In this document: positions 7,012 to 63,439 of the stretch, one piece after another
How positions within the stretch are numbered: position 1 is the first letter of the stretch
Layout: each line of letters begins with the position of its first letter
IMG/VR virus record: IMGVR_UViG_3300011727_000001
Span: 19,900-83,899 of that record
Reading direction: 5' to 3' (one strand)
Length of the DNA stretch: 64,000 nucleotides
From: a virus
Taxonomy: Duplodnaviria; Heunggongvirae; Uroviricota; Caudoviricetes
Notes under the pieces: model-generated
Told to the model about the DNA's origin: nothing
What the model saw: the letters and a program-made list of their open reading frames with translations, nothing else
Databases searched by the model: none
Program-made: the position numbers and the translations under genes

Positions 7012-7105
7012 AGACCAGCTCCTGATGAGCGATAACAGGCGCAACGCCTGAGCAGGTCGAAAGAAATAGCGCAATAGCTAAAGCGCCAAATAGCTTTTTA
7101 GGCAT
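7001..7105 (-). CDS. Small signal-peptide / lipoprotein-like peptide (~34 aa)
   Basis: MPKKLFGALAIALFLSTCSG.... Its ATG overlaps the ABC ATPase stop codon (ATGCCTAA). Confidence 0.25.
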
Positions 7106-7742
7106 TGTGACCTCCGCGCTCAATGTCGACCTTCTCGCGAAATCGCTTTGTGATGGTCAAATCCGGGCCGAGTTCTTCCGCCAAATCTGTGTGAGTTGTG
7201 GCGACCATGAGTGTTTTACCAAGCCGCCGGGCGATCTTTTGGATATTAAAAGCAACGATTTTGGCTGTGACGCGATCCAGAACGGCGCCAAACTCGTCGG
7301 CGATCCAAACATCAGCATCTTGCTCCATGATCTTTGCGAGCTTCAGCCGGTAGCGCTGGCCGTCCGACAACTCGGAAGGCTTGCGAATATAGATCCAGGC
7401 ATCGGAGATACCGGCTTTCGCCAGGAGATCGGTCGCCTCGACGGTGGAATTGCCAACCAGGTCGATTACGGGCTTCTCTTCGAGGACGATTTCACCGAGA
7501 TCTGCAATCTTTTTACCTTCGCTCAGCATTTGGGCTTTTAAATCGCGCAACAATAGCGACTTGCCAGAGCCCGACTGACCGGTGATGTAAACAACGTCGC
7601 CTTGATCGATATTAACCTTCAGGTTGTCGTAAATAACGAACTCTTTATCCGACAAAGCCAAACCAAAGCTCTCACCGATCTCAAGCACGCGCGGTGAGCG
7701 CTCAACATTGGATTTGAATGCGCGAGAGATGGTGTATTCCAT
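7098..7742 (-). CDS. Stand-alone ABC-type ATPase (nucleotide-binding domain only, 214 aa)
   Basis: Walker A GQSGSGKS, signature LSDGQRYRL, Walker B DVWIADE, H-loop TTHTD. No transmembrane domain. Confidence 0.7.
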   Translation of the reverse strand: MEYTISRAFKSNVERSPRVLEIGESFGLALSDKEFVIYDNLKVNIDQGDVVYITGQSGSGKSLLLRDLKAQMLSEGKKIADLGEIVLEEKPVIDLVGNSTVEATDLLAKAGISDAWIYIRKPSELSDGQRYRLKLAKIMEQDADVWIADEFGAVLDRVTAKIVAFNIQKIARRLGKTLMVATTHTDLAEELGPDLTITKRFREKVDIERGGHNA

Positions 7743-8089: not shown

Positions 8090-8779
8090 TTATGATCTTT
8101 GATCAATATATGCGACAAAGGCATCCGCACCTTTCTGCCCCGTCTCATCTTCAATACGGGACATGAAATCGCGAATGATGCGTGATTGAGAGATGGATAC
8201 ACGTTTGAAACCGAGCGCATCAGCGACCGGCGCCGCAGTATCATCAACCTCTTCAGTTTTTTGAATATTAGCCTGCTGCTGAGCCTCAACCGCCTCACTA
8301 ATATTTTCTACGAAGAAATCATCATTGATTTCACCGAGGTCTGCAGTTGAAAAATCCAGCTCTTTTTCATCAAAACCAAGCGTGGTCAGATCGATATCTG
8401 TTTCCGCCAACCGGCGCAGTTCGTCTTGAATGAGAGCCATATCGTAAGATTGGCCCGTCACTCGGTTATCTGCCAAACGAAGTGCGTCGGCTTGGTCTTT
8501 GGTTAGGTCAGAACGAACAATAACCGGCACACGTTTACGACCGAGTTTGATGGCGGCCAGACGACGGCCATGACCTGCGATGATCTCGCCGTTTGTCCAA
8601 ATGACAATAGGCTGTGTCCAGCCATAGGTCAGAATAGAGTTTGCCAGTTTCTCGACTTCACCTTCAGGGTGATTTTTCGCATTAAGCGCATATGGAACGA
8701 GCTTATCGACATCCCATAGCTCAATTTTGGGCTGATCACTCATCATAGGTCTTTCTATAAATATCCATAAGTTCTTCAC
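8090..8779 (-). CDS. ParB-like nuclease domain protein 1; start probably at MMSDQ near 8746
   Basis: ParB N-terminal box GHGRRLAA, plus conserved ParB/Srx-like surroundings. Confidence 0.6.
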   Translation of the reverse strand: MKNLWIFIERPMMSDQPKIELWDVDKLVPYALNAKNHPEGEVEKLANSILTYGWTQPIVIWTNGEIIAGHGRRLAAIKLGRKRVPVIVRSDLTKDQADALRLADNRVTGQSYDMALIQDELRRLAETDIDLTTLGFDEKELDFSTADLGEINDDFFVENISEAVEAQQQANIQKTEEVDDTAAPVADALGFKRVSISQSRIIRDFMSRIEDETGQKGADAFVAYIDQRS

Positions 8780-8905: not shown

Positions 8906-9634
8906 TCACTCGGCGATCTCCGCCAATGCCGCATCAAGTTCTTTGTCGGTGATCTGGTCTTGGAGCCCTTTCACATCGAACTGATCAATCAGAAGATGAA
9001 CCAAGGCGTCACCGGCGTTTGTAAGATCATCAGCATCAGTGAAGGATTGGGCTTTTTGCGTTCGAGCGATCAAAGCGGTCAGCCGCTCTGCGTCACGCAG
9101 GGATAGTTTAAAGCGCATTACCGTATGAGTTTTGGGCGCCTTGGCGGCCGGAGGTTCAGGCGCCTCCTCAATCTCCGACGTTTCGAAATTCCCGTCAATT
9201 TCCAGATCGTCGAGCGCTATATTAACACTTGAGAAGATTGTTGTGAGATCCTCGTCCCCATAAGGAAGGAAGCTTTGCAGTTCGTTTGCATCACCCATGC
9301 TTTTAAGAAGTTCGGCAAAGCTCAAGGTGTCATCGGCGCCGTAACGAGCATTATCGAGAACCGAAATCTCTTTGGCGCGCTTATCATCAATCGGCCCCAG
9401 ATTTACGACTGGAATTTCAGAAAGTCCGAGTTTAACGGCTGCCTGCCATCGATGCTCGCCGCCGATAATCTCCAGCACACCATCAACTTCTCGAACAACA
9501 ACAGGCTTGAATAGCCCGTTTCGTTTAATCGACTCCTCAAGTTTCGCTTCATTATCAGGCGACACGAAATTCGTGTTCCAGGAGTTAGCCTGAAGCTTTT
9601 GAGGGGCAATATTGAGCAATTGTGGTTGCGGCAA
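8906..9634 (-). CDS. ParB-like nuclease domain protein 2
   Basis: ParB box GGEHRWQAA. 242 aa. Acidic C-terminal half. Confidence 0.6.
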   Translation of the reverse strand: MPQPQLLNIAPQKLQANSWNTNFVSPDNEAKLEESIKRNGLFKPVVVREVDGVLEIIGGEHRWQAAVKLGLSEIPVVNLGPIDDKRAKEISVLDNARYGADDTLSFAELLKSMGDANELQSFLPYGDEDLTTIFSSVNIALDDLEIDGNFETSEIEEAPEPPAAKAPKTHTVMRFKLSLRDAERLTALIARTQKAQSFTDADDLTNAGDALVHLLIDQFDVKGLQDQITDKELDAALAEIAE

Positions 9635-9703: not shown

Positions 9704-11299
9704 ATGGCTGTTATTCAGCTCGCGCATAACGCAGTCGCAGCAAAACTGGTAAACCCACCGGCCGACGTCGCTCAGATCACCGCAGATCTGCTGTCTTATG
9801 TCGTGGATGGCGCTGATCATTTGTGGTCGGTGAATAGCGGCCGCTGGGATGGAAAGTCCTCTTTTTACGATACGGTCAAACATACCTTCCCGGCTGGGTT
9901 CGTTTATCTTGTCCACGCGGAGCTGAAAAAACGCGGCCATACTGTGCATCTTATCCGCAAGCCTCATCACGAACCTTTGGGGCCGGAGAATCCTATCGTT
10001 GATCAGTTCGGAAATGATGATCCTCGATATGACTATCAGATGCGTGCGCTTAGGCAGGTTGAGAAACACGGCCGCGGAATTATTCAGGTAGCCACCGGTG
10101 GGGGTAAGTCCAAGATCGCAAAGCTGATCATGGCTCGATACCGCCGCATGTCCTTGTTTCTAACAACTCGCGGCATTCTTCTCTATCAAATGGATGATCA
10201 ACTGAAAGAGATCGGTCTTAACACCGGCCAGATTGGCGATGGCGAATTCAAGGTTGTGCGCGGTGTTAACCTTGGAATGGTGCAGACGTTGGTTCAGGCG
10301 TTGGAAGTGCCGGATCTTAATGCAGAGATACGAGCGGTCGTGAAATCAATTCATTTGTCGAAGAACAAGGATGAAAATTTACCGCGTGAACGAATTGTCG
10401 AAATAGCTAAAGAGCGATTTGACGAAAAGACGAAAAAGCGAAATCGCATTCTCAAAGTGCTTGAAATGATTGAGGTTGTAATAGGTGAGGAAGCACATGA
10501 GGCCGGCGGTGAAAGCTATTACAAGATCCTGCAGCACTGTAAGAACGCTTCTATTCGAGTTGCGCTGACCGCCACTCCGTTTATGCGCGATAGCGCCGAA
10601 GATAATATGAGACTGATGGCTGCTTTTGGGCCGAAGCTGATCGTCATCACCGAGGAAATGCTGATCAACCGCGGCATCCTTGCAAAACCGTATTTCAAGT
10701 TTGTTGACTGCGCCCCTCACCCAAAATTGCGACGCACAAGCCCTTGGGAGCGCGCCTATAAGCTCGGCTATATCGATAATGACTTTATGCTGCAGGACGC
10801 ATTGAAGGATGCGCTGAGGGCAAAAAATGTCGGCTTGCCGGTTATGACGCTCTGCGTGCGTAAAGAGCACGGTCAAAAGATCGAGGACTATTACAACGCT
10901 AACGGTTTGCGTGCGAAATTTATCTACGGCGAAAGCAAGATGGAAATTCGCCGGCGTTACATCGACATGCTCGCGACCGGCGAGATCGATGTCCTGATCG
11001 GCACCACTATTCTTGATGTGGGTGTTGACGTGCCAGCTGTCGGATTGGTTCAGCGCCTGGGCGGCTATAAAGCTGAAGTGCAATTGCGCCAACAGATTGG
11101 TCGTGGATTGCGAGCAAAGAAGAATATGCCAAACTATGCCTTCATCGCTGATTACTCCTGCAACATTAACACCACTCTCTCCGACCACGCTCGGCAGCGT
11201 CGATCCATTGTGGAAGCAACTCCGGGTTTCGTTGAAGGCATTCTTCCTAAAGGACAGGATTTTGATTGGTCTATCTTCGAGACAAAGGCGGCCGCATGA
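9704..11299 (+). CDS. SF2 DNA/RNA helicase (DEAH/type III restriction-res-like)
   Basis: Motif I ATGGGKSK, motif II GEEAHE, motif VI QQIGRGLR. 531 aa. Confidence 0.7.
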   Translation: MAVIQLAHNAVAAKLVNPPADVAQITADLLSYVVDGADHLWSVNSGRWDGKSSFYDTVKHTFPAGFVYLVHAELKKRGHTVHLIRKPHHEPLGPENPIVDQFGNDDPRYDYQMRALRQVEKHGRGIIQVATGGGKSKIAKLIMARYRRMSLFLTTRGILLYQMDDQLKEIGLNTGQIGDGEFKVVRGVNLGMVQTLVQALEVPDLNAEIRAVVKSIHLSKNKDENLPRERIVEIAKERFDEKTKKRNRILKVLEMIEVVIGEEAHEAGGESYYKILQHCKNASIRVALTATPFMRDSAEDNMRLMAAFGPKLIVITEEMLINRGILAKPYFKFVDCAPHPKLRRTSPWERAYKLGYIDNDFMLQDALKDALRAKNVGLPVMTLCVRKEHGQKIEDYYNANGLRAKFIYGESKMEIRRRYIDMLATGEIDVLIGTTILDVGVDVPAVGLVQRLGGYKAEVQLRQQIGRGLRAKKNMPNYAFIADYSCNINTTLSDHARQRRSIVEATPGFVEGILPKGQDFDWSIFETKAAA

Positions 11300-11493
11300 C
11301 GCCGGATGAGAAACGTCTAGCCATTCACTTCTTTGACGCCCGTGGGAAGTCCATGCTTACACGGGATCATCAGGAGGAGCTAATTAACAAGCTTGAGGCT
11401 GAAAACCTTGAATTAAGGCGCTTGCTGAAGAAAGCAAGTGCGGCGCTAAAGGTCGAAAGAGCTAAATCGGTAATTACCGAAACCCTGAATTAG
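11266..11493 (+). CDS. Small coiled-coil protein
   Basis: 75 aa, overlaps the helicase 3' end. Leucine-zipper-like LINKLEAENLELRRLLKK. Confidence 0.3.
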   Translation: MVYLRDKGGRMTPDEKRLAIHFFDARGKSMLTRDHQEELINKLEAENLELRRLLKKASAALKVERAKSVITETLN

Positions 11494-12126: not shown

Positions 12127-12646
12127 GCCTTTAACTGCAACATGGCTCTCTGGTGTCGGGATTAAGCGGCCAGAAGCGCTCACCCTCAATGTTAAAAGCT
12201 TCTCACTTGGCGGGGTCGTGTCCCGAACGCAACAAGAGCCGGGATATCAGGTCTTTTGTGAAGGCGATTTCATTGGCTGGTTCAATTATCAAGGAGCGTT
12301 TCAAGGCAACTCCTTGAGCATTCCTATTTTGGAAATGGATGATCTATCACAATTGACGAGAGGCGCGCCTCATCAGGCCATCAAATCGCCTGTAAGCAAT
12401 CGAACAATTCATCTCAAATGCGAAACCATGCATCGAAAGCTTGACGAACTTGAACTCGCGTTGGCTCAAGACAGAGAAGTCGTGCATTCTGCCTTTAAAC
12501 AAAAGCACAACATTCCAACAAGCGCTGAAATCTCACGGGAGCCGCGTGATAACAGTATTCTCTACCGCTGGCGCGTATTCGTGGTTTCCTTGGATGATTC
12601 AGAGCTTCTCTTCGATCTTCCCGGCTTTACTCCCTCCCCTGACTAG
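12117..12646 (+). CDS. Hypothetical protein
   Basis: ~176 aa. ATG at 12118 overlaps the kinase stop codon. Confidence 0.35.
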
Positions 12647-12668
12647 ACTTTCTTAACCATTATGGTCT

Positions 12669-12708
12669 ATCCGTTTTTAGCTAGAACACGAAATAGCTAA
12701 AAACGGAT
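12669..12708. promoter_or_regulatory. 15-bp perfect inverted repeat (ATCCGTTTTTAGCTA n10 TAGCTAAAAACGGAT) just upstream of the ParA gene; candidate operator or centromere-like site
   Basis: Read directly. Contains the TAGCTAAA element that recurs elsewhere in the window. Confidence 0.5.
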
Positions 12709-12715
12709 ATAGCCA

Positions 12716-13375
12716 ATGAGCGAATTAGTGATCGCGTGCCTATCCCAGAAGGGCGGCGTAGGTAAATCTACCCTCGCTCGTTTGATCGCCAGAACTTATG
12801 CTTCTGCCGGCTGGCGCGTAAAAATAGCTGACTTCAATACCAAACAGCTCACCTCTGTCGATTGGGTGGGCATGAGAATGTCTACCGATATGGTGCCGGA
12901 GATTGCGGCGGAGCCATATACCTCGGTCAAGGGTTTCAAGCGCGAGCCGTTTGATTTGATCGTTGCCGATGGCAAGCCTGATAGTGATAACTCCAGTCTG
13001 GATATCGCTAAGGCCGCGCAGCTGGTGATTATTCCAACCGGTTTGGCTTTGGACGATCTTAAACCCCAAATCCTATTCGCGAACGAACTGGTTTCAAAAG
13101 GCGTTGACCGCAAGCGGATCTTAATCGTCCTGAATAAAATCACCGAAAGCACAACTGCTGTTCAAGAGGCGCGCGAATATCTGCGGTCAGCTGGGTATCA
13201 GATCGCGGAAAACGACCTTACTGCAAAGACCGGCTATCAGATGGCGCAGAATATCGGCCGGTCGGTAGCTGAAACGAATTTCCAATCTCTGAACGAGCGC
13301 GCCGATGAACTGGCCGCAGAAATTGTCCAGAAGATGAACGAATTATCGGAGGCCGCAAATGAGCAAGGCAAGTAA
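12716..13375 (+). CDS. parA: ParA/MinD-family partition ATPase
   Basis: Deviant Walker A LSQKGGVGKST. 219 aa. Confidence 0.8.
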   Translation: MSELVIACLSQKGGVGKSTLARLIARTYASAGWRVKIADFNTKQLTSVDWVGMRMSTDMVPEIAAEPYTSVKGFKREPFDLIVADGKPDSDNSSLDIAKAAQLVIIPTGLALDDLKPQILFANELVSKGVDRKRILIVLNKITESTTAVQEAREYLRSAGYQIAENDLTAKTGYQMAQNIGRSVAETNFQSLNERADELAAEIVQKMNELSEAANEQGK

Positions 13376-13616
13376 TCCAACCAAAGCCCCTGTGCCAAAG
13401 CCAGCCCGTTCGCTCAAAATGAGCTTTATGGGAGCCGCTGTAGCCCCGACAACTCCTGCAAGCAATATGACCGAAAAGCTGAAGGATATGAGCTTTAAAG
13501 TCGATCCGGAGTTTCACCGTCGCTACAAATCAGCGGCGGCGCTTAATGGCGTTCAAATGAAGGATATCCTTGAACAAAGCTTTGAACTCTGGCTGGAAAA
13601 GCAGAATTCAAAATGA
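13359..13616 (+). CDS. ParG-like small DNA-binding partner (putative ribbon-helix-helix C-terminus)
   Basis: 85 aa. Overlaps the ParA stop. Disordered basic N-terminus and structured C-terminus, typical of ParG/RHH centromere-binding proteins. Confidence 0.4.
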   Translation: MSKASNPTKAPVPKPARSLKMSFMGAAVAPTTPASNMTEKLKDMSFKVDPEFHRRYKSAAALNGVQMKDILEQSFELWLEKQNSK

Positions 13617-13730
13617 GGAGGCGCCCGTTACAGGGCGCTTTCGCTTTTTAGCGATAAGGCTAAAGGCCGAAATCGCGAAAACAATCATGGCAATCGAGAA
13701 GATGGCGTGCGTTACAATAACTTCAGTCAT
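13608..13730 (-). CDS. Small TM peptide (~40 aa), translationally coupled to the HslV-like gene
   Basis: MTEVIVTHAIFSIAMIVFAISAFSLIAKKRKR.... Its ATG overlaps the HslV-like stop (TATGACTGA). Confidence 0.3.
   Translation of the reverse strand: MTEVIVTHAIFSIAMIVFAISAFSLIAKKRKRPVTGASSF
13619..13649 (+). terminator. Rho-independent terminator ending the ParA/ParG operon
   Basis: GCGCCC-gttaca-GGGCGC followed by TTTCGCTTTTT. Confidence 0.6.
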
Positions 13731-14193
13731 AGCTGACAGTCTCCACTTTACCGCCAGTCCACGGATCAAGCTGAATTGCCAGCTCAACCGCTTCAACGGC
13801 ACTCCTGCCCAGAACCATAGCGGCAAGTGCAGTCTGCTCACCGCTGCCAATTGCGTAGTAATCGGCCTTTAGAGGGCCGCTGAAAGCCTGTCCATCATCC
13901 CAGTAGTAGGCATCACCGGCTTTATCGACAACGAGCGCCTGGACGCCGTATTCGCGATCTGCATTAATTCTGGTCAGATCGCTACTTCCAGTCCCAAGAT
14001 GCTCAACAAGAAGGTGTAGGAAGCACGTTGGCTCGCCAACCTTACTGGACGAGATGCCGATGAGAAAATCACCGATCTTAAAGACTTTGCTTTTGGAGCC
14101 GATCGGATGTTTATCACCAGACCATGCTCGGCTGTCTCCAGCCATAATTCCATCACGATAAGCAATTGTGGTCATTGGAACGCTTTCTGACAT
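13723..14193 (-). CDS. HslV/proteasome-beta-like Ntn-hydrolase peptidase; mature N-terminus probably the MTTIAY start near 14175
   Basis: TTIAYRDGIMAGDSR matches the HslV TTIVSVRRNGHVVIAGDGQ region. KVFKIGDFLIGISS matches KVRRLYNDKVIAGFAG. YAIGSGEQTALAA matches IAIGSGGPYAQAA. Confidence 0.65.
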   Translation of the reverse strand: MSESVPMTTIAYRDGIMAGDSRAWSGDKHPIGSKSKVFKIGDFLIGISSSKVGEPTCFLHLLVEHLGTGSSDLTRINADREYGVQALVVDKAGDAYYWDDGQAFSGPLKADYYAIGSGEQTALAAMVLGRSAVEAVELAIQLDPWTGGKVETVSYD

Positions 14194-14445: not shown

Positions 14446-14740
14446 TCAATCGGAAATAGCGGTTTAGCTAAAGGGCGATAAGGCTATGTAGCGAAATAGC
14501 AGGAGCGGTGGTTAGAGAGGATATTCGGGTTCTGGGATTTCCCGGATGTCAACTTAAGCCAATGTCCGTCTCGATAAGTCCAGTAGGAGAGGTGGTTAGG
14601 AGCCGGAAGTGTGGCGAGCGATGTATGTATCCCCTTGATTTCATTACGTTTTTTCTAAGACTTCGCTTGCATCATGTGCAGCATATGCTATTCTCTAATC
14701 ATCAGAGAGCGAGACAAACAAACAAGCAATCTGACAAAAC

Positions 14741-14768
14741 AAATAATAAGTAATCAGTTACTAAATTA
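14741..14768 (+). promoter_or_regulatory. Promoter-like motif in plus orientation (AAATAATAAGTAATCAGTTACTAAATT), followed by the GAGAGAGAAA ribosome-binding site and the ATG at 14784
   Basis: Same sequence as the reverse complement of the minus-strand copies, which shows the motif follows the orientation of the downstream gene. Confidence 0.55.
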
Positions 14769-14783
14769 AGAGAGAGAAATATT

Positions 14784-15362
14784 ATGACAACTTCTGAAAA
14801 TGCATTCTTCATCGCTGTATCTAATCGCGCAAAAGACGTGAAAAGCGAAAGCAACAAACAGCTTGCTATGAAGTTAGCAACAGCAATATCGCTTTCGAAA
14901 AACACAAACTTTCTTGAAAAGCTGAATGTTTCATCTGCTGATTTTGTTGATACGAAACACGCTGCTGACAAGCTTTGCTTGTATAGCATCAGACAGATAG
15001 TCAATGTTGTATCTGCTATCACAAAAGCGACAGAACGCGCTTCACTGCATGACATAAGCGAAACAGTCTTTGCAGCGCTTCGCACAATGATCAACTTTTC
15101 AAACGCTGATCGCGCTTTCACAAAAGCTGACTTATGCGCTTGTATTGATAGCGCTGCGAAGATCAGCGACGATAAAAAAGCGCTGATCTATCGTAAGAAA
15201 GCAATGCACGACGCTGCTTATGCAAATCGTCAAATGACAATCGCGCTCAACGTAATGCGCGTTCTGAAAATGATCAAAACAGAAAACAAGTTTGAATATA
15301 CTGTAGCGAAGAATAACAGCGCAGTTAAAGCACTCAATAAGCTGTTTGATGAACATAAGTAA
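14784..15362 (+). CDS. Hypothetical all-alpha protein in an AT-rich island with atypical codon usage
   Basis: 192 aa. Strong preference for A-ending codons (GCA/ACA/AAA), unlike the surrounding genes. Confidence 0.5.
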   Translation: MTTSENAFFIAVSNRAKDVKSESNKQLAMKLATAISLSKNTNFLEKLNVSSADFVDTKHAADKLCLYSIRQIVNVVSAITKATERASLHDISETVFAALRTMINFSNADRAFTKADLCACIDSAAKISDDKKALIYRKKAMHDAAYANRQMTIALNVMRVLKMIKTENKFEYTVAKNNSAVKALNKLFDEHK

Positions 15363-16149: not shown

Positions 16150-16172
16150 CCCGCTTCGGCGGGTTTCTTTTT
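16150..16172 (+). terminator. Rho-independent terminator
   Basis: CCCGC-ttcg-GCGGG followed by TTTCTTTTT. Confidence 0.7.
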
Positions 16173-16186
16173 GGCTAATCACCACC

Positions 16187-16588
16187 CCATGGCCGCCCCA
16201 AATTTGGACTATAGCCGAGGGAAGGGCGTTCCTCCGCCGGCTCCCATGGCTACACCATGGCGCTTTAGCTAAATGGCTGTAACGCTAAGCCTATAAATAG
16301 CTAAATCGTTACCATGGACACCCTAGGCAACCCACGGGACACCATGGAAAGGGTAGGGGCTAAAATCCCCACAGAAGCCCGTAGACGCGCCCCATGGGGA
16401 AATATAGAACACACTCGCACCCATGGGCTTAAAGCGCCCCTATGCCCCGTTATGTCGATCTGGGGTGGGTTTCTGACCTGTATATGGCGCACCCCGGTTC
16501 CATCCGGCGCCCGCTCCCATGGAGCCCACCGGTTCCAGAAAACCCCATGGGCCGACGTCACCAGGGATCTCCCATGGCAAACCATGGG
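16187..16588. repeat. Array of ~11 irregularly spaced CCATGG iterons, extended consensus (C/A)CCATGG(G/C)
   Basis: Hexamer at about 16187, 16236, 16255, 16312, 16345, 16395, 16425, 16519, 16548, 16572 and 16583. About 0.1 copies expected by chance in 400 bp. Confidence 0.6.
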
Positions 16589-16655
16589 CTGAGACTGGCC
16601 AAAAACAAAGGGTGACCCGTCGATCACCCTTGGTTCATTGAGCTGGACTGATGCT

Positions 16656-17447: not shown

Positions 17448-17559
17448 GATTTTTAACTTTCTCTCTTTTATTCGTAAGCGTTATTGCTTTCGATAATTAG
17501 AGAATAGAACGCTAATTCGTGGTTGTCGGCTGGTAAAACGAGGTTTGTTGCTATGGTTA

Positions 17560-18130
17560 TATTATGCGGAACGGCATCGCCGCGTGTGGAGCCGGAAGGT
17601 TCTTTGGTCAGGCCGTGGATTTCCATGGGCGCGCCGCGGCGTTTACGAGCCGGAGAATTCTTACCCTAGGAGGCGCGAAAAACCTCTTTACGAACCGGAG
17701 GATTTTAGCTGACCCTTAATTCGCGTCTCCATACTATGTATATAGTTATTTAAATAACTAATAAGTTACTTACTAAGTTTGGAAAAAAATTAAGGGTCAG
17801 CGTTTTCAAGGGAACTCTCCGGCTCGTATAAAACGTGGCGCGAAAGTTGGTGGGATGTTATATCCGCGGAGGTGCCGTGGTTGTTCCGAGGTCAGACCAT
17901 GGATGCGCCGCGGTGTTTCCTTGGTTGCTCCATGGGTGGATGGGGAAATTTGCTGGGAGATCCCGTTGAACCATGGCGCGGCCCACAATCCACCGCACTT
18001 ACTTCTCACCAACTTCTCACCAGCTTCTCTTTCATTTCCCACGCATATCTCCTTCACTTCTCATCAGCTCTATAACTCACCACACCTACGCAGCTATCTT
18101 CTCTATGGTGCATACGTCTCTACGCCATGG
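17560..18130. repeat. Complex repeat region: direct repeats of TTTACGARCCGGAGRATT (two copies plus one inverted), of CATGG(G)CGCCGCGGYGTTT (two copies), further CCATGG copies, CTTCTCACCA repeated twice, and a ~140-nt pyrimidine-rich tract (17990-18130)
   Basis: All repeats read directly. Candidate origin or regulatory region. Confidence 0.45.
17705..17802 (-). promoter_or_regulatory. Promoter-like motif (CTAATAAGTTACTTACTAAG) plus palindrome TAGTTATTTAAATAACTA, inside a 14-bp inverted repeat (GCTGACCCTTAATT / AATTAAGGGTCAGC)
   Basis: Read directly. Confidence 0.4.
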
Positions 18131-18570
18131 CTCTCTTGCGCTACTGGTCTGTTAGTGTCTTCTATCGCCGGATCGTCATTTAGCTTATTCCGTAAATAGC
18201 TATTTATTGACGTCATAACCCTTATCAGGCCAGTGTTGTGCGTGATCTATGATTATATGATCGCTAATTCGCTCAGATTTGCTCACCTGATAGCGTTTAT
18301 ATGTATTTGCTTATCAGTAATCATCTGGAGAGTGTTTGCGCTCTGGTGAGCTTCTATGCGCTTTTCTATATTCAGCTGATTAGCCTTATAGCGGTTTACA
18401 TATTTCGCTTTTTAGCGATATGGCGGTTTTCATGTAAACTTGCTGCTAACTTAGCGCTAAGGAGTTTCTTATTTGCCATAAGAAGGTCTATATCAATTAG
18501 AACTGTCATTCCGGAACCGTAACGATATCGTTCCATGGGATCGGGCGACCGTGGCTTGACATAATGTAAA

Positions 18571-18606
18571 GGAAAAGCCGAGACGCTTTCAGGAACGTCC
18601 CGGCTT
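18571..18606 (-). terminator. Rho-independent terminator on the minus strand (11-bp stem with one mismatch, U-run on the minus strand)
   Basis: GGAAAAGCCGAGACG...CGTCCCGGCTT. Confidence 0.45.
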
Positions 18607-18721
18607 AGGTTGACGAAGGATAGTGTTTAAGAGCGCTACCTCTTCGTCATTATCGGTGTTGTTCCACTACGCCGAAGAGCAAGGCATAGTTTGCACGACC
18701 GCCGACTGCGCGCTTAACTGA

Positions 18722-19504: not shown

Positions 19505-19545
19505 TTCCTTCTATTTATTTAGCTAAATAGCTTATTAGTTAATTA
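19505..19545 (-). promoter_or_regulatory. Second-class intergenic motif TTTAGCTAAATAGCTTATTAGTTAATTAGC
   Basis: GCTAAATAGC family. Related copies at 12669-12708, 14455-14492, 16262-16312, 18176-18215 and 20600-20640. Confidence 0.4.
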
Positions 19546-19603
19546 GCCCTCATCATCAAATAGACGCCGAGGATCATGAGCGCTACACCGACCCATGTCA
19601 TGG

Positions 19604-20599: not shown

Positions 20600-20640
20600 T
20601 CCTTTGTCGCTAAATAGCCTATTAGCTAAATACCTATTTC
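20600..20640 (-). promoter_or_regulatory. Second-class motif GCTAAATAGCCTATTAGCTAAATACC
   Basis: Two tandem half-sites immediately upstream of the 20594 start. Confidence 0.4.
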
Positions 20641-31345: not shown

Positions 31346-31501
31346 TTCATGCCTCGCTATTTAGCTTTATCGCTATTTAGATAATAAGCTAACAAACGAC
31401 GGCAGACGGCTGGAGACTTAAGGCGCACCCATGGGACGCGCCGGCCAGCAAAAAGCCCAGAGCTTTAACTCTGGGCTTCTCGCTGCGTCTGGGAGGACGG
31501 C

Positions 31502-33221: not shown

Positions 33222-34664
33222 TTATGCGACTTTTTGTTGGGTTGTTTCATTAAAGCCAAGGCGAAGATCCAGCGCGTAACCGGCCTCATCACTGCGTTTA
33301 CGAACGGCTTCGAAGCTTTCACCTTCATAGTGACCATTCATATAGATCACCTTCAGGGCGTTGGCGTCGATCTGCTCCGGCGTGGCTTCACTTTCTTTCA
33401 GAACCACACTGGTATTGCCATCGCGAAGAACGATCTGACGACCAGCCTTGGACGTCTTAGAGGGATCGGTCGCTGGCTTTTTCTGAATATCTTCCCAGCC
33501 TGCACCGGTAGAAATTGCGTTGGCTTTCATGGCGAAATTCAGATCGTTACGAGTATGGCTTTGCAGCAATCCGCCGCCCATACCAAATGCGATATTGTCG
33601 ATGGAGAAACCAGCTGCAGCCATTTCAACCATAAGATTAGCAATCGATTCCGCGTTCATACCGTCGCCTTGAATGACGCCGACTTTCGAGTTCAGAACGC
33701 GATGACCTTTGCTGTTCACGGTGCCGCCGAATTTATCCCAAAGGATTTGCAGCGTTTTGATTGGTGTAAGAACCGGGTCTCCCGAATCCGGACGCACAAT
33801 CAGTTTCCCGCCGATCTTCATGATCTTATCGCGCAGCTCGCCGCCGTAGATATTTTCCAGGGCGTTAAACAGATCATAGCTGTCTGAAACAACCGAGAAC
33901 ATACCGTCCCCAAAGGCGTCGATCATATTGCTATAAGCTTTCGCCTCGCCATCGCGACCCCAAGAGGTCATAGTCGAGTGCTCTGAGGCAGGGATCGAAT
34001 AACCGGCGCAGATATTCCGATCATTATAAATACGGCGAACCGCGAGAAGTCCTTCGATCGTATCTGTGCCTTGGAAGTTAATCAGGTGCGCCATTGCGCC
34101 CAGACCGGCAGATTCACCGCTCGATACACCGCGTCCGCCGAAGTCATGCAATTTGAACGGCAGACCGTCCAGGTTATCGCATGTAAGGCGCATCATTCCC
34201 CGGATCATCGCTTTGACGTGGAAAGAGGTTGTCGCAACAGAGGTAGGATACCAGATGGCGCGAAGCATTGCTGTTTCAACGAAGCTTGTCAGCCAAGGCA
34301 GATCAGGGTCAGTGTTGCGAACCTGAACCAGAGGCACGCTCTTTTCCACATAGCTGCCTTCTGGCAGCGATTGAATCTCCAACGGCAGGTAACCGTTGTG
34401 CTTCATCACAATGTGCTCCCAGCCAGCGCGATTGAACGGCAGACCGTGTGTCTTCATCAACGCTTCGGCTTCGTCAATCATTGATGGCGTGATCTGATGC
34501 ATCAGATAATCGCGAATGAAGGCGTGAATGCCGACAAACAGGACGCCGCCTGGCTGATCAGTTGGGCGGGATTCGATATACGAGGACATGAACTTTGTGT
34601 TCGGCGGCAGCTGGAGAAAATGCGAGTGCTTATAGCTATCACTCGCCAGAATGATATTCGTCAT
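33222..34664 (-). CDS. nadV: Nicotinamide phosphoribosyltransferase (NAMPT/NadV family)
   Basis: 480 aa. N-terminal NIILASDSYKHSHF...PPNT matches the NAMPT NILLATDSYK signature. Length fits. Confidence 0.8.
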   Translation of the reverse strand: MTNIILASDSYKHSHFLQLPPNTKFMSSYIESRPTDQPGGVLFVGIHAFIRDYLMHQITPSMIDEAEALMKTHGLPFNRAGWEHIVMKHNGYLPLEIQSLPEGSYVEKSVPLVQVRNTDPDLPWLTSFVETAMLRAIWYPTSVATTSFHVKAMIRGMMRLTCDNLDGLPFKLHDFGGRGVSSGESAGLGAMAHLINFQGTDTIEGLLAVRRIYNDRNICAGYSIPASEHSTMTSWGRDGEAKAYSNMIDAFGDGMFSVVSDSYDLFNALENIYGGELRDKIMKIGGKLIVRPDSGDPVLTPIKTLQILWDKFGGTVNSKGHRVLNSKVGVIQGDGMNAESIANLMVEMAAAGFSIDNIAFGMGGGLLQSHTRNDLNFAMKANAISTGAGWEDIQKKPATDPSKTSKAGRQIVLRDGNTSVVLKESEATPEQIDANALKVIYMNGHYEGESFEAVRKRSDEAGYALDLRLGFNETTQQKVA

Positions 34665-34673
34665 AGTAACCTC

Positions 34674-35702
34674 TTAGAGCAGGTTGGAGATGAGGGTGAA
34701 GTGATCTTCGAAGAACCGGTCTGAACCGAGATCATCGAAGTAATACCAATCCGCGTGAGCGGCATCGTCGCCGCCGGCGACAGCGGGAAGATCAATGTGG
34801 TTCGGGATGACAAACATATACATCATCGAAACCACACGACCGCGCAGTGACCGTGACGGATTATCGGCAAGCTCGTGGCTGGCCAGATTATGTTCGATGT
34901 TGGACAGATCGAGACCGGTTTCTTCCTTCAGCTCACGCTTAGCGGCTTCAAGAAAAGTTTCACCGCTTTCAACGAAACCGCCGGGTGTCGCGAGCAATCC
35001 GCGTCCAATTGCTTTACCGCGTGTCACAAGCAGGATCTTACCGCGATGAACAACGAGAGCGTCTGCGGCGAGAAATGGCCCTGTGCCGTATTCTTCACGG
35101 TTACGCTGATATGTATCGACCTCAGCCACAAGGTTTTTGAACGCATCGCTGAAAGTGAATGCTTTCATCCAAGGCAAGAGGCGAGCGGAGACTGCATCTT
35201 GCGGCAGGCGCGGCAGGCGGCGCAAATATTCGATCCGAATATCGGAAGCGTTAATGGTGCCATGCTGGGCTGTCAGCTGAACGGAGTTCCATTCGGGAAA
35301 CATATTCAGATAGTAGGACGAGGCATCTTTGCCGTATCCGGTTAACGCAATCGTTACGTCGCGCAGACCATGATTACGAAAACCACCGCCGTTGAGATGA
35401 TCCAAGACAGCTTCGTTAACGGTTTTGCGCAGTTCATTCGCCCAACGATAGTCCGGCTGGTAATCGCGAAGAGGGGCGATGATAATGCGGCCGGACATTA
35501 CTTCGTGACGGAACACGCTTTCGATCATTTCTTTTCGTTCATCAAAGGTGAACGGGTTGATCGGCGTGCGAGCCTGATAGGCAGAGCCGACAATCAGAAT
35601 GAGAGTTTCAACCTTGTTCAAGGCTTCGCGAATAACGTGCTCATGCCCGATATGCAGTGGCTGGAAGCGCCCAATGTAAACGCCGTAATTGTAGTCAGCC
35701 AT
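34674..35702 (-). CDS. Bifunctional NMN adenylyltransferase (NadM-type) with C-terminal Nudix hydrolase
   Basis: N-terminal GRFQPLHIGH nucleotidyltransferase motif. C-terminal Nudix box GGFVESGETFLEAAKRELKEETGL. Confidence 0.8.
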   Translation of the reverse strand: MADYNYGVYIGRFQPLHIGHEHVIREALNKVETLILIVGSAYQARTPINPFTFDERKEMIESVFRHEVMSGRIIIAPLRDYQPDYRWANELRKTVNEAVLDHLNGGGFRNHGLRDVTIALTGYGKDASSYYLNMFPEWNSVQLTAQHGTINASDIRIEYLRRLPRLPQDAVSARLLPWMKAFTFSDAFKNLVAEVDTYQRNREEYGTGPFLAADALVVHRGKILLVTRGKAIGRGLLATPGGFVESGETFLEAAKRELKEETGLDLSNIEHNLASHELADNPSRSLRGRVVSMMYMFVIPNHIDLPAVAGGDDAAHADWYYFDDLGSDRFFEDHFTLISNLL

Positions 35703-61278: not shown

Positions 61279-62235
61279 TTATTTCACAGAGTTTTTGAAA
61301 TTATCCAGGTTGATCAATTTAGGCCGGCAACTGAGTGTTGCGTTTCCATTTTTAACCGCTTTAAGCATGTAAGTGATGATCTTGTGCATGGCTCGTTGAG
61401 CATCACCATTCCCGGTTCCAAACTTACCGTTCCAGGTTTTTGTATCATCTTCATCTCCATTAACTCCGCACTGAAGATAAGAGTTGAGATAATAATGCGC
61501 ATTACCCTGGCCATTCATCAAAACAGCGCCGGTTTTATCATTGTAGGCTTCAAGCATCATAAGGGTAGAAGAACCCGAATCCCGCCGAAGCATCAGGAGC
61601 GCGCTTGCCAAGAATGGAACTTTAAATCGAGAACTAACAGGGTTAATTTGATCCAAAATCTCTAGCTCGGTTTGGAAAAATTTAAGCTGAGAGTCGCGGT
61701 CATTCTTGCCAGGCGCGCTTTTTACGTAGGAGCTCGCAAGTGTTAACGCTTCTCCAAAACTTCCTTTCGCCAACCAGCTGGTTTTTAAATTCATACCGGC
61801 GGCGCTCATGAAACCCTGAATCGCATCAGGAGAGGTTTTGACTGAACGGCGACTGTCGTAACTGTTATAAAGTCTTTCCGATTCAGCTTTTAAACTAATT
61901 TTAGGATCAAGAATGTCATAAACAATAACAAGCAATTCATCGAGGAAGCTAGCCTTACGATCAATCAAATACGAGCGCGTATGACCATCGACTTTGACGC
62001 AATTTCCATATGTATCTCGCGCCATAAATGCAACAGCATGTTCAGGCTGAAGGGTTTTAAGGTGCAAAGCTGCGCGTAAAGTCTCATTTCTCTGAATTGA
62101 GTTGCGTGGAATTTTCACCCATTCAGTAGCTTTCATAACCTCAGCGGAAACTCGAATATTGTTAACTACAATAGAGGTCGCCGGTGTAACCGGCGACACG
62201 ATTTTAGGTGATGCTGCGCGAAGTGCTTGTGCCAT
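61279..62235 (-). CDS. Hypothetical protein with a DGHTR motif; possible DUF262/ParB-like nuclease superfamily (tentative)
   Basis: GNCVKVDGHTRSY resembles the DGQHR/DGQQR motif of ParB-superfamily DUF262/DndB proteins. Confidence 0.3.
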   Translation of the reverse strand: MAQALRAASPKIVSPVTPATSIVVNNIRVSAEVMKATEWVKIPRNSIQRNETLRAALHLKTLQPEHAVAFMARDTYGNCVKVDGHTRSYLIDRKASFLDELLVIVYDILDPKISLKAESERLYNSYDSRRSVKTSPDAIQGFMSAAGMNLKTSWLAKGSFGEALTLASSYVKSAPGKNDRDSQLKFFQTELEILDQINPVSSRFKVPFLASALLMLRRDSGSSTLMMLEAYNDKTGAVLMNGQGNAHYYLNSYLQCGVNGDEDDTKTWNGKFGTGNGDAQRAMHKIITYMLKAVKNGNATLSCRPKLINLDNFKNSVK

Positions 62236-62305: not shown

Positions 62306-62692
62306 TTAAGGCCGAGCGATGGAAGTTTTTCGCTTGAATTCTTTCAACGGTAAATACCTTTGCAATGCGCCGCCGCGGCTCTCATAGTTCATAATTCGCG
62401 CATGATTTGTGTCGAAGAACCGCTCGATAGGCGCCAGCCAAATATCATCACTCTCCTTACAAAGAACGCCGACAACTTTAATACCTTCGAGGCGGCGTTC
62501 TCGTAGCGTTTCCTCATCGATAGCCCACGCGGCAACACCTTCCCGAATAGCTTCGGAAAGGTTGCGCTTGCCCGACCTGAAAATCTCACCGAGCTTTCGA
62601 TAAGCCAGATACACATTTGTCCCGTTAGGCAATGTATAAACGGCTCCGTAAAGTCTCCGGCCTCTCTTGATTACCCGTTTGGGCAACTTGTC
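62306..62692 (-). CDS. Hypothetical basic protein (start probably the internal MDKLPKR)
   Basis: The track ORF N-terminus overlaps the ASCH gene. ~129 aa from the internal Met. Confidence 0.3.
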   Translation of the reverse strand, partial: DKLPKRVIKRGRRLYGAVYTLPNGTNVYLAYRKLGEIFRSGKRNLSEAIREGVAAWAIDEETLRERRLEGIKVVGVLCKESDDIWLAPIERFFDTNHARIMNYESRGGALQRYLPLKEFKRKTSIARP

Positions 62693-63155
62693 CATTTGCT
62701 TGCGCAGCGAGGGAGGTTTGCGCGCCACTTTCAAAGCCTTTCCATTCGTATAAGCCTTGTTTTCCCTGAATAGGGATCGGATGTTCCAAAATTTCCGGAT
62801 AACGCATCCGCCAGGCATAATTACCAAGATCATACCAGCCGTAAGATTGCTCTTCCTCGGTGATATCATTGAGAAATTCTTCGGTGACAGGCTCGAAACT
62901 ATGCAGCAATGCTGTGCCAATGAGATATCCTCGCGGCAGCTCCTCCAATGGCGGTAACCCGGTCTGAGCGTAATACTTCTGCATAAGCGGATCGGCGAAC
63001 GCGCCTCTTTGATCCGGCGTTATGTTCTTTGTAGCTGCTATTCCAATACGCTGACCTATTGCCGATTTTGGCGGAGCCCAAGTTCGCGTCTCGAAGAATT
63101 TAAAGCCGTGGACAACAAGTGATGCCCACGGCTGCCATATTGAAATAACCTTCAT
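62625..63155 (-). CDS. ASCH-domain (PUA-like) protein
   Basis: N-terminal MKVISIWQPWASLVVHGFKFFETRTW is a typical ASCH signature. Confidence 0.55.
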   Translation of the reverse strand: MKVISIWQPWASLVVHGFKFFETRTWAPPKSAIGQRIGIAATKNITPDQRGAFADPLMQKYYAQTGLPPLEELPRGYLIGTALLHSFEPVTEEFLNDITEEEQSYGWYDLGNYAWRMRYPEILEHPIPIQGKQGLYEWKGFESGAQTSLAAQANGQVAQTGNQERPETLRSRLYIA

Positions 63156-63226: not shown

Positions 63227-63439
63227 TTATTCGGATAGCTCAGCGAGAACTTCCACTTCACCAGCTTTTAATTCGCGATTTGGCAGGTCTTTAATCGCTT
63301 CCGACCATTCAAGCTGATCATAGGGGGTTTGAAGCGCAAGTGATCGCGCTTCTTCTTCCGTGACAGCTTCAACATTGACCGTGGCGCGCTGCACCTGTTC
63401 GACACGCCGGATCAGGACGACCTCGTAGAGTTTCTTCAT
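63227..63439 (-). CDS. Hypothetical protein
   Basis: 70 aa. Confidence 0.3.
   Translation of the reverse strand: MKKLYEVVLIRRVEQVQRATVNVEAVTEEEARSLALQTPYDQLEWSEAIKDLPNRELKAGEVEVLAELSE

Follow-up and report, generated by a model that had tools for sequence, protein, structure and literature searches.

The two-gene cassette formed by parA and the small gene behind it is best explained as the partition module of a phage-plasmid, of type Ib (ParF/ParG-like), and we put the probability of this explanation, together with the mechanism proposed below, at roughly 0.7. The cassette lies in a 64-kb stretch of phage DNA (the window, meaning the whole stretch that was analysed), and sequence analysis identifies its products as a ParA and a ParG-like protein. 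The plasmid life of such phages is already in the literature, and the cassette is real but mostly expected. What appears to be new is the ParG-like partner, the architecture, placement and partial conservation of the TAGC box arrays, and the arrays that flank many cassettes of other phyla, with a box type that tends to follow the beta-strand of the protein.

ParA and its small partner

The operon consists of the following features.

12716–13375, plus strand: parA, encoding a ParF-like ATPase of type Ib; the protein has 219 aa and a deviant Walker-A motif and lacks an N-terminal DNA-binding domain
13359–13616, plus strand: parG-like gene, encoding 85 aa, of which the N-terminal tail is predicted to be disordered and the C-terminal part is a ribbon-helix-helix domain
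13617–13649, plus strand: intrinsic terminator, a 10-pair stem (7 G-C) at 13617–13642 followed by a T run

The sequence-only reading of this DNA had called a deviant-Walker ParA, an 85-aa ParG-like protein with an overlapping start and a strong terminator closing the operon, and all three calls were confirmed. ParA carries KGGVGKST at residues 12–19, and the motif LSQKGGVGKST was invariant among the relatives compared. The protein matched Pfam CbiA/ParA/MipZ and PHROG 164 ('ParA-like partition protein'), and NCBIfam ParA_partition matched it at E 1.7e-23, which is below the equivalog cut-off. Residues 5–204 aligned with residues 3–202 of TP228 ParF (PDB 4dzz), a full-length alignment, and an end-to-end alignment was also obtained with ParA 5u1g.

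The start of the parG-like gene overlaps the end of parA by 17 nt, and its product matched Pfam ParG above the cut-off (22.7 bits against 21.4). The closest solved relative was ParG 1p94 (E 4e-4), and the next match, omega 1irq, was weak (E 0.04). A profile of 35 sequences of the small protein found ParG 1p94 at E 3.4e-5, followed by other ribbon-helix-helix proteins. In an AlphaFold model of the monomer, residues 1–40 were disordered and confident helices were predicted at 50–63 and 67–84; the best Foldseek match of this model was ParG. The segment ahead of the helices had a pLDDT of at least 86 with no assigned secondary structure, and the modelled form was the monomer; the beta-strand of this fold is formed in the dimer only. 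A proline-lysine/arginine pair in the tail (P13, K14) was kept in 12 of 12 close homologues, and a homologue of the ParG-like protein was located directly 3' of parA in every relative examined.

Two genes at 8090–8779 and 8906–9634, 3 kb from parA on the opposite strand, correspond to genes annotated as "ParB" in relatives; they matched the ParB N-terminal domain only, below the NCBIfam cut-offs. A type Ia ParABS system was considered and rejected, because these genes are N-domain only and 3 kb away and ParA lacks the type Ia N-terminal domain. Judged by these matches, the true ParA partner is the unannotated ParG-like protein and not the annotated "ParB" proteins.

The phage and its plasmid-borne relatives

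The phage is a member of the RHEph10/pLM21S1/B1VFA group, which are siphoviruses of Alphaproteobacteria of about 110–120 kb. The gene order is the same as in this group: two ParB_N genes, a divergent UvsW-like helicase, a small ORF, dNMP kinase, a hypothetical gene, parA, the small gene and an HslV-like peptidase. RNR, ThyX, rIIA/B and SbcCD are common to this phage and the RHEph10 group, and nadV/nadM are shared with pLM21S1. In contrast to the group, the phage has a lower GC content (about 49% in the window against about 59–63% in the named relatives), and megablast of the 11.5–14.3 kb region found no nucleotide-level match among deposited phages. The relatives were found by protein-level searches only; an exact-peptide scan of genome contigs returned no match, and an alignment-based scan succeeded. 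The phage itself occurs as whole-length contigs of 109.8–116.5 kb in several independent samples, one of them in NCBI assembly GCA_054051425.1.

Pfam matches in the window included the large and small subunits of RNR, ThyX, an rIIA-like HATPase protein, SbcCD and nadV/nadM, in agreement with the RNR, ThyX and rIIA-like genes named earlier. An absence of integrase from the window had also been noted, and no integrase family was matched by any of the 27 ORFs in the Pfam scan, which left aside the remaining, mostly small, ORFs. No tRNA or Rfam family was found in the 64-kb window. Virion and packaging genes in the window were the large terminase subunit and a DUF6651 protein; a 546-aa ORF with no family match occupies the portal position, and tail and lysis genes were seen in relatives only, outside the window.

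Among the relatives, pLM21S1 was published as a plasmid-like prophage with RepC and par and without an integrase, and its induction failed (PMC4447125). B1VFA and V1VFA-S were published as 'phage-plasmid-like', and relatives form plaques (PMC12509600); the group is also mentioned in PMC7969092. The literature on the group contains no report of lysogeny by the plaque-forming isolates. Publications on the RHEph10 group name parA, 'parB' and repC; the papers and records examined label the parG-like gene only as a hypothetical protein and do not mention the operator and box arrays.

Among deposited complete genomes, six relatives sharing this gene order are listed as circular plasmids of 115–119 kb. 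Plasmid-borne ParA homologues with 54–78% identity were found in Shinella, Pararhizobium, Sinorhizobium (pLM21S1), Rhizobium and Methylobacterium, and further homologues on 109–118-kb contigs of isolate drafts. An integrase annotation was absent from the roughly 93% of the RHph_Y2_11 record that was covered. The replication initiator that had been suggested as a search target was not in the window; RepC (Pfam RP-C and RP-C_C) was found on the 110,406-bp contig SRR12087332_458. The longest contig listed with a 98%-identical ParG-like protein is likewise 110,406 bp, and the RepC locus has a GC content of 47.5%, compared with 49% for the window. A sibling phage (98% ParG identity) thus appears to carry the RepC initiator, a tie based on equal contig size and similar GC and not on sequence overlap. 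Exact-protein matches to the ORFs at 62625–63155, 63227–63439 and 61279–62235 near the window end were not found, so the link to RepC stays indirect.

The episomal carriage suggested by the sequence-only reading is supported by the six syntenic circular plasmids, and an extrachromosomal form was thereby found in relatives, this phage being known as whole-length contigs only. Since relatives had already been published or deposited as plasmids, this support is not new. The description of the genome as lytic-looking did not hold beyond appearance, the group having already been proposed as plasmid-like prophages (PMC4447125, PMC12509600).

It might still be supposed that the cassette has no role in prophage inheritance, being used in lytic growth to position replicating or packaging DNA or being a passenger module derived from a plasmid. 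The isolation of RHEph10, the RHph phages and B1VFA as plaque formers would suit this, as would the presence of rIIA/B, RNR, ThyX and a replisome of the phage's own; upstream of parA, at 11521, there is also a promoter motif of phage type, and parA could be co-transcribed with the dNMP kinase gene. We consider this supposition very improbable, as the cassette position and all ATPase motifs are kept across relatives at 52–78% ParA identity, at least six relatives are circular plasmids in sequenced bacteria, and the cassette is found together with a RepC initiator and no integrase.

TAGC box arrays and the putative operator

The element TAGCTAAA is about 10-fold over-represented in the window, with 14 matches against 1.45 expected, and none of 100 shuffles reached 14. 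Its sites are at 6784, 7075, 10404, 12676/12694, 14463/5, 16264/6, 16298, 19518/20, 20623 and 58184. The recurrence of such elements between 13.6 and 20.7 kb had been noted earlier and holds; sites are present outside that stretch too, from 6784 to 58184. The elements belong to arrays in which TAGC tetramer boxes alternate with AT-rich spacers of 4 bp, giving an 8-bp period; these arrays are located on both cassette flanks and at about nine other, mostly intergenic positions. L104 in the list is a relative compared with the window.

12674–12721, plus strand: upstream box array, TTTTTAGC TAGAACAC GAAATAGC TAAAAACG GATATAGC CAATGAGC, reaching the parA start codon
13645–13676, plus strand: downstream degenerate box array, TTTTTAGC GATAAGGC TAAAGGCC GAAATCGC, overlapping the terminator T run; L104 counterpart TAATTAGC GCTTTGCC TATTTAGC TAAAAGCG
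7063–7102, plus strand: dispersed TAGC array, GAAATAGC GCAATAGC TAAAGCGC CAAATAGC, syntenic in L104 at 2734–2757
11437–11468, minus strand: array of two boxes, located within a 75-aa ORF at its 3' end and ahead of the gene for dNMP kinase; L104 has a syntenic array at 7135–7166
14453–14508, plus strand: six-unit array, GAAATAGC GGTTTAGC TAAAGGGC GATAAGGC TATGTAGC GAAATAGC, adjoining a minus-strand TTGACT-17-TATGGT promoter-like site
16260–16307, minus strand: dispersed TAGC array between two convergent terminators
18177–18208, plus strand: dispersed TAGC array; syntenic pair in L104 at 14668 and 14888
18377–18424, plus strand: dispersed TAGC array
19516–19555, plus strand: dispersed array, TATTTAGC TAAATAGC TTATTAGT TAATTAGC, 18–50 nt upstream of a minus-strand gene starting at 19498
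20601–20634, boxes on both strands: dispersed array directly upstream of a minus-strand gene starting at 20594
31348–31395, minus strand: dispersed TAGC array, the sole clear array far from the par region

TAGC was the most 8-bp-periodic of the 256 tetramers in the window (35 periodic and 27 non-periodic pairs). Same-strand TAGC boxes were spaced by 8 bp seven times and by 16 bp 14 times, each compared with about 1.2 in shuffles. A plain lag-8 autocorrelation scan was too insensitive for these arrays because they mix orientations. When 14453–14508 was aligned with L104, the (TA)GC boxes were invariant at 8-bp intervals and the spacers differed; in the syntenic arrays of a relative with 73% ParG identity, the boxes were likewise invariant and the spacers drifted. 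The existence, periodicity, conservation and placement of the boxes, like the plasmid state of the relatives, are established by sequence analysis, and the repeats are probably protein-binding sites.

Some of the arrays contain two boxes only and could be due to chance. The lag-8 scan also picked up 10401–10454, which was rejected as an array; this part of the helicase gene encodes a run rich in Lys and Glu. The repC regions of RHph_Y2_11 and of the sibling contig showed no array.

About 27 ParA/ParG-like cassettes were examined, from Saprospiraceae, Enterovibrio, Colwellia, Desulfobacteraceae and a 23-kb Bartonella plasmid. Many of them, not all, were flanked by 8-bp arrays on one side or on both, mostly TTAGCGAA/TTCGCTAA, and downstream arrays were common in this wider family. 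The density of TAGC/GCTA per 150 nt was 2.7 upstream and 2.4 downstream, compared with 0.94 elsewhere in these loci. The box type tends to follow the beta-strand of the ParG-like protein: KDLNFKV occurs with TAGCGA, RPLNFKV with AGCACGA and MTFNM with TAGCT. The match is imperfect, as the window and Shinella both have KDMSFKV with the boxes TAGCTA and T(A/C)GCGA, respectively, and Y2_11 combines FKVD with TAGCGA, against a strict link.

These cassettes bear on the alternative that the arrays are promoter elements or operators of another phage factor, such as a sigma-70-like protein or the Cro/CI-type HTH protein beside repC, with the parA operator as one member of its regulon. Relatives do encode a sigma-70-like factor and an XRE-type HTH protein, the arrays lie beside or just upstream of gene starts, and the general promoter-like motif of the phage, GCTATA + AAGTAA-N4-TTACTT, starts with GCTATAAAT, which contains a GCTA box. 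Such a factor would not account for 8-bp arrays flanking homologous cassettes in other phyla and on the 23-kb Bartonella plasmid, most of them too short for this phage. The boxes also vary by lineage (TAGCTA, TAGCGA, TCGC/GAAA, TAGCT) where GCTATA + AAGTAA-N4-TTACTT is constant, and tandem 8-bp periodicity is typical of ribbon-helix-helix arrays and not of promoters (PMC3130281). We therefore judge this alternative unlikely. The narrower view that the arrays are clusters of the -10-like element GCTATAAAT was rejected as the main reading, since the element is constant in lineages whose array boxes differ.

Two further features overlap or lie just ahead of the upstream array.

12668–12709, strand-symmetric: perfect 16-nt inverted repeat with a 10-nt spacer, proposed as the operator and the core of the upstream centromere-like site
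12643–12672, plus strand: putative parA promoter, CTAGAC (12643–12648), an 18-nt spacer and CTATCC (12667–12672)

The arms TATCCGTTTTTAGCTA (12668–12683) and TAGCTAAAAACGGATA (12694–12709) are 100% complementary, and each contains two boxes 8 bp apart, TCCG and TAGC. A perfect repeat with a 10-nt spacer had been described before with 15-bp arms; repeat and spacer stand, and the arms are 16 nt, one base longer each. No perfect short-range inverted repeat in the 64 kb is longer; chance would give about 6e-4 repeats like this one (64000 x 41 x 4^-16). The 42-nt operator sequence was absent from IMG/VR. Among five relatives, dyad symmetry was kept in 98.8% of cells, with two positions changed on both arms and a variable spacer. 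The long repeat was confined to the window/Shinella subgroup; RHEph10- and B1VFA-type relatives have box arrays there and no long hairpin.

We take CTAGAC and CTATCC as putative -35 and -10 elements from their resemblance to the alphaproteobacterial sigma-70 consensus CTTGAC-N17-CTATAT. A scan for E. coli-type promoters showed no enrichment (10 found, 15 expected) and gave none for parA. In five relatives CTAGACT, TTAACC and TATCCG are invariant blocks and the remaining intergenic DNA differs; TTAACC (12653–12658) lies inside the 18-nt spacer of the putative promoter. The three blocks are present in the B1VFA/pLM21S1 group too.

The main role of the repeat could instead be that of an RNA hairpin, formed in the 5' leader of parA, that sequesters the ribosome-binding site or stabilises the transcript. 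As RNA it is predicted to fold at -25.7 kcal/mol (z-score -6.7) with the GGA of the likely Shine-Dalgarno sequence in the stem, and the pairing survives the two double-sided changes and one U-G wobble around a variable loop; the relative L105, however, has an A-G mismatch, the long repeat is restricted to one subgroup, and the arms are made of the same boxes as the arrays. If CTAGAC...CTATCC is the promoter, transcription would begin within the left arm, which would prevent the hairpin. We rate such a role as quite unlikely. It would be compatible with the partition module.

Proposed mechanism and comparison with known systems

In the mechanism that we infer for the type Ib partition module, the genome of about 110 kb would be carried as a low-copy circular plasmid, and the RepC-type initiator that replicates it would be encoded beyond the window. 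The 85-aa ribbon-helix-helix protein would load cooperatively, as dimers, on TAGC boxes spaced by 8 bp; these lie in the two arrays that flank the operon, the one directly ahead of parA including the 16-nt inverted repeat and the other following parG directly. The disordered N-terminal tail of the ParG-like protein would stimulate ATP hydrolysis by nucleoid-bound ParA, and sister copies would separate. As the upstream site overlaps the putative -10 element and start region of the parA promoter, the same binding is proposed to autoregulate the operon in the way known for ParG at OF of TP228. The ParG-like protein probably also binds the roughly nine further arrays, mostly intergenic and in the early region, which would be accessory centromere sites, operators of neighbouring promoters, or both.

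The sequence-only reading had likened the recurring elements to dispersed centromere sites. This is one of two readings, and an omega-like regulatory role fits the promoter-adjacent positions equally well. A bolder version, which we hold as doubtful though possible, is that the ParG-like protein is an omega-like master regulator at more than 10 arrays that couples partition to early and replication genes of the phage, by silencing or timing them, with the dispersed arrays doubling as a multi-site centromere. The arrays concerned are at conserved positions ahead of early genes, of the HslV-like operon and of the dNMP-kinase/par operon and, in the sibling, of the DnaB-primase-ligase operon.

With this phage, a divergent lineage of low GC content joins the large alphaproteobacterial phage-plasmids, a family that has been little studied. 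The analysis also corrects the partition annotation of this family, the ParA partner being the overlooked ribbon-helix-helix gene and not the ParB N-domain proteins, and it points to specific target sites on the DNA, namely the TAGC boxes with their 8-bp spacing and a 42-bp operator. Should the dispersed arrays form a regulon, the phage would offer a parallel to omega in its dual role, with segregation linked to control of the lytic programme.

The closest known system is ParF-ParG of TP228, where ParG binds ACTC boxes with 4-bp AT-rich spacers, direct and inverted, at the operator and the centromere (PMC3130281). As in TP228, a small ParA without an N-terminal domain is followed by a 76–85-aa protein with a flexible tail and a ribbon-helix-helix domain. 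The candidate sites also resemble parH/OF in having degenerate tetramer boxes with 4-bp AT-rich spacers, direct and inverted, upstream of the operon, a placement in which operator and centromere coincide. Unlike TP228, the box is TAGC and not ACTC, the replicon is a phage, and the operon has arrays on either side, with many more elsewhere in the genome; sequence similarity is low for both proteins (E of about 1e-4).

The delta/omega system of pSM19035 (Inc18) likewise uses a ribbon-helix-helix centromere-binding protein. Besides binding the centromere, omega recognises short repeats in several promoter regions and acts as a global repressor, and this dual role is a model for the dispersed arrays described here. 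Its units are 7-bp heptads and its regulon covers copy control and toxin-antitoxin genes, whereas the units here are 8 bp and repC has no array in RHph_Y2_11 or the sibling. In P1 (ParA/ParB/parS) and N15 (SopA/SopB, with dispersed centromere sites), a partition ATPase and a centromere-binding protein keep the extrachromosomal prophage. Those systems are type Ia, with a large ParA carrying an N-terminal HTH and a ParB with an HTH, in contrast to the 219-aa ATPase and ribbon-helix-helix partner of this phage.

ParA and its ParG-like partner

The sequence-only reading had described a parA gene overlapped by a gene for a small ParG-like protein, with a strong terminator closing the operon, and all three features were recovered, the terminator lying directly 3' of the small gene.

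Genes of the partition cassette
12716-13375, parA, 219 aa
13359-13616, parG-like gene, 85 aa, its start overlapping the parA end by 17 nt
13617-13642 and a following T run, intrinsic terminator, stem of 10 pairs with 7 G-C

The ParA protein matched the Pfam families CbiA, ParA and MipZ as well as PHROG 164 (ParA-like partition protein), and it aligned end to end with TP228 ParF (4dzz) and ParA 5u1g. The deviant Walker A motif, LSQKGGVGKST, was unchanged across 12 ParA homologues. Because the protein has 219 aa and no N-terminal domain, it was assigned to the type Ib ATPases.

The 85-aa protein scored above the Pfam ParG threshold (22.7 bits versus a cut-off of 21.4). Its closest solved structure was ParG 1p94 (E 4e-4), then omega (E 0.04), and its 35-sequence profile matched ParG (3.4e-5), followed by SvtR, Mnt, an antitoxin and omega, all of which are ribbon-helix-helix proteins. 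The AlphaFold model, computed as a monomer from a 49-sequence alignment, shows residues 1-40 as disordered and two helices, 50-63 and 67-84; pLDDT exceeds 90 across much of the 45-84 stretch. In this fold the beta-strand arises only in the dimer. Foldseek placed ParG at the top, then CopG, Arc and antitoxins, with weak E-values, as expected because only about 40 residues are available to match. By the criteria that can be tested on sequence, the cassette is a type Ib partition system.

Two other genes are annotated as 'ParB', and family records label their homologues 'ParB' or 'ParB-like nuclease' and count them as the partition partner.

Annotated 'ParB' genes
8090-8779, minus strand
8906-9634, minus strand

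These genes adjoin each other, divergent from a UvsW-like helicase gene, and their products match only the ParB/Srx N-terminal domain, under the NCBIfam cut-offs. They lie elsewhere on the opposite strand and are unlikely to be the partner of ParA, and the label as used for the relatives seems wrong. An HslV-family peptidase homologue (13723-14193, minus strand; PHROG 1040, E 9e-33) is encoded directly downstream of the cassette, a position it also has in those family members that come from Rhizobiaceae.

Family membership and probable episomal carriage

No deposited phage matched the window at the nucleotide level. The ParA protein is 54-65% identical to those of the Rhizobium phages RHph_Y2_11, RHEph10, N1_10, B1VFA, V1VFA-S and X66 (115-122 kb), and gene order around the cassette is shared with both phages inspected (RHph_Y2_11 and B1VFA). 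Homologues with 53-78% identity are carried by circular 115-119-kb plasmids of complete genomes.

Circular plasmids with a ParA homologue
Shinella zoogloeoides
Pararhizobium qamdonense
Sinorhizobium sp. LM21 (pLM21S1)
Rhizobium beringeri (pRlX6)
Methylobacterium, two strains

Gene order is preserved on both sides of the cassette in the Rhizobiaceae plasmids; in the two Methylobacterium plasmids, conservation is limited to the genes upstream and the pair formed by parA and the small gene. Isolates of Phyllobacterium, Ancylobacter, Faunimonas and Paracoccus also carry homologues, on contigs of 109-118 kb. The identical ParA was found on 13 contigs; several of these are whole-length (109.8-116.5 kb) and were obtained from independent samples, one being an NCBI assembly.

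The genome is a divergent new member of a family whose phage-plasmid lifestyle has already been proposed. In 2015, pLM21S1 was described as an integrase-less 'plasmid-like prophage' with RepC replication and partition systems (PMC4447125), and it has 83 genes in common with RHEph10 (PMC4447125; PMC5537653). A 2025 announcement termed B1VFA and V1VFA-S 'phage-plasmid-like' because parA, parB and repC are present (PMC12509600). The episomal carriage suggested by the sequence-only reading agrees with these reports and with the circular plasmids; it is the published expectation for the family and holds no novelty. The same reading placed the cassette in a lytic-looking phage; a gene set with RNR, ThyX and rIIA is normal in this family. 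RHph_Y2_11 combines RNR, ThyX and rIIA/B with RepC and its own replisome, with no integrase annotated within about 93% of its record. The window holds RNR, ThyX, rIIA-like, SbcCD and nadV/nadM genes. The last two form a NAD salvage pair, nadV (NAMPT) at 33222-34664 and nadM (NMN adenylyltransferase-NUDIX) at 34674-35702, reported in pLM21S1 (PMC4447125) but absent from RHEph10.

The proposed search for a replication initiator found RepC in RHph_Y2_11 and on a 110,406-bp sibling Logan contig, outside the window; 110,406 bp is also the length of the longest contig bearing a 98%-identical ParG-like protein. GC content at the repC locus (47.5%) is similar to that of the window (49%). As for the extrachromosomal form, circular plasmids represent the relatives, and whole-length contigs represent the identical ParA. 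Tad2-like and Acb2/Tad1-hairpin-like genes (anti-Thoeris/anti-CBASS) occur near the par region of the relatives L105 (2388-2684 and 9806-10147 of that sequence) and L106 (2040-2336).

Inverted repeat, box arrays and palindrome

Repeats of the par region and window
12668-12683 (TATCCGTTTTTAGCTA) and 12694-12709 (TAGCTAAAAACGGATA), perfect inverted repeat, 16 nt per arm, 10-nt spacer
12674-12721, upstream array, including the inverted repeat
13645-13676, downstream array, directly after parG
7063, 11437, 14453, 16260, 18177, 18377, 19516, 20601, 31348, dispersed arrays
3307, 5278, 9651, 11521, 14426, 14748, 25743, 33159, 41290, 48637, 55696, 61227, examples of at least 28 AAGTAA-N4-TTACTT sites

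The inverted repeat already noted upstream of parA is the longest perfect short-range one in the window, with a chance expectation of about 6e-4 by our own arithmetic. In five relatives the dyad is preserved (98.8% of cells paired), two positions being altered on both arms while the spacer varies, and CTAGACT and TTAACC upstream of it are invariant. CTAGAC-18 nt-CTATCC resembles the alphaproteobacterial sigma-70 consensus; read as a promoter, it would place a putative -10 and start site within the left arm, which would suit autorepression. The repeat could also act as an RNA hairpin, which is compatible with an operator role: the predicted fold (-25.7 kcal/mol) takes in the likely ribosome-binding site, but RHEph10-type and B1VFA-type relatives have the boxes and lack the long hairpin.

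The recurring TAGCTAAA elements of the sequence-only reading are well above chance (14 occurrences versus 1.45 expected, with no shuffle reaching 14) and are pieces of arrays in which TAGC tetramers alternate with AT-rich spacers of 4 bp. Distances between TAGC copies on the same strand peak at 8, 16, 24 and 32 bp (n=7 at 8 bp and n=14 at 16 bp, each versus about 1.2 in shuffles), and TAGC ranks first among all 256 tetramers for 8-bp periodicity in the window. Apart from the one at 11437, which falls within a 75-aa ORF at its 3' end, the dispersed arrays all occupy intervals that separate called genes or ORFs of 100 aa or more. Most par-region arrays recur at syntenic positions in the relative L104 (73% ParG identity), and when the 14.45-kb array was aligned with a relative, the (TA)GC boxes were invariant at 8-bp steps while the spacers diverged. 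The same architecture is built from TTAGCGA in RHph_Y2_11, TAGCT in B1VFA/pLM21S1, and TCGC/GAAA in Shinella, L105 and L106.

The AAGTAA-N4-TTACTT palindrome (31 matches with at most 2 mismatches versus 1.75 expected) is far more widespread in the window than the arrays. The sites examined lie 15-45 nt 5' of start codons on either strand. In the gene sense, GCTATAAAT or something close to it often precedes the palindrome, and the combination looks like a phage-specific general promoter (-10) together with a hairpin at the 5' end of the transcript. The palindrome is absent from RHph_Y2_11 and retained in pLM21S1, the Shinella plasmid, B1VFA, L104 and L105. It stays constant in lineages whose array boxes differ, which argues against the arrays being plain promoter elements.

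The dispersed arrays adjoin promoters or gene starts: the one at 14453 abuts a TTGACT-17-TATGGT site (14449-14421), arrays lie 18-50 nt upstream of the starts at 19498 and 20594, and others precede the DnaB-primase-ligase operon on the sibling contig and the SSB gene in RHph_Y2_11. No array was found at repC in RHph_Y2_11 or the sibling contig. The dispersed arrays may be accessory centromeres, omega-like regulon operators, or both. Alternatively, the master repressor could be the Cro/CI-type HTH protein (135 aa) adjoining repC on the sibling contig, although its identity comes from a weak match. A small upstream ORF, also next to repC, appears by eye to encode a second ribbon-helix-helix protein (no Pfam match), and a sigma-70 region-2-like protein is encoded nearby; along with the HTH protein, both are candidates for controlling lysogeny, copy number and the late programme (sibling contig L102, 8915-9322, 9534-9830 and 3914-4567; L019, 41789-41995).

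Two intervals between terminators, 16165-16650 (relatively GC-rich) and 17450-18700, have few convincing ORFs and contain direct repeats with CCATGG and long imperfect inverted repeats. ARAGORN and Rfam returned nothing there; B1VFA and L104 have tRNA genes in the matching neighbourhood. An AT-rich island at 14600-15350 (GC about 38-42% versus 49% overall) contains a 192-aa ORF (14784-15362) for which Pfam, PHROG and NCBIfam gave no match; one box array and two palindrome motifs flank it.

Boxes, ParG-like proteins and TP228

A ParG-like profile search of the genome collection found about 30 loci in which a homologue immediately follows parA, and flanking repeats were examined in about 27 of them (Saprospiraceae, Enterovibrio, Colwellia, Desulfobacteraceae and others) and in a 23-kb Bartonella plasmid carrying RepA and a restriction system. 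Many, but not all, have arrays of 8-bp units on the upstream side, and often on the downstream side as well, with TTAGCGAA/TTCGCTAA as the main unit; TAGC/GCTA density per 150 nt was 2.7 and 2.4 in the flanks versus 0.94 elsewhere in the same loci. The beta-strand is the DNA-contacting part of the ribbon-helix-helix fold. Box type tends to follow this strand in the ParG-like protein (KDLNFKV with TAGCGA, RPLNFKV with AGCACGA, MTFNM with TAGCT), a correspondence that is imperfect.

In the accessible literature, we found no description of the ParG-like partner, the operator or the 8-bp box arrays, nor of the arrays' cross-phylum conservation or phage-plasmid dispersal; these are useful, incremental additions. 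Experiments on TP228 showed ParG dimers coating ACTC boxes, which are set in direct and inverted orientation with AT-rich spacers of 4 bp, both at the operator OF and at the centromere parH (PMC3130281). The ParG-like loci share the array architecture of OF and parH, and the cassette would probably work in the same mode as TP228 ParFG/parH.
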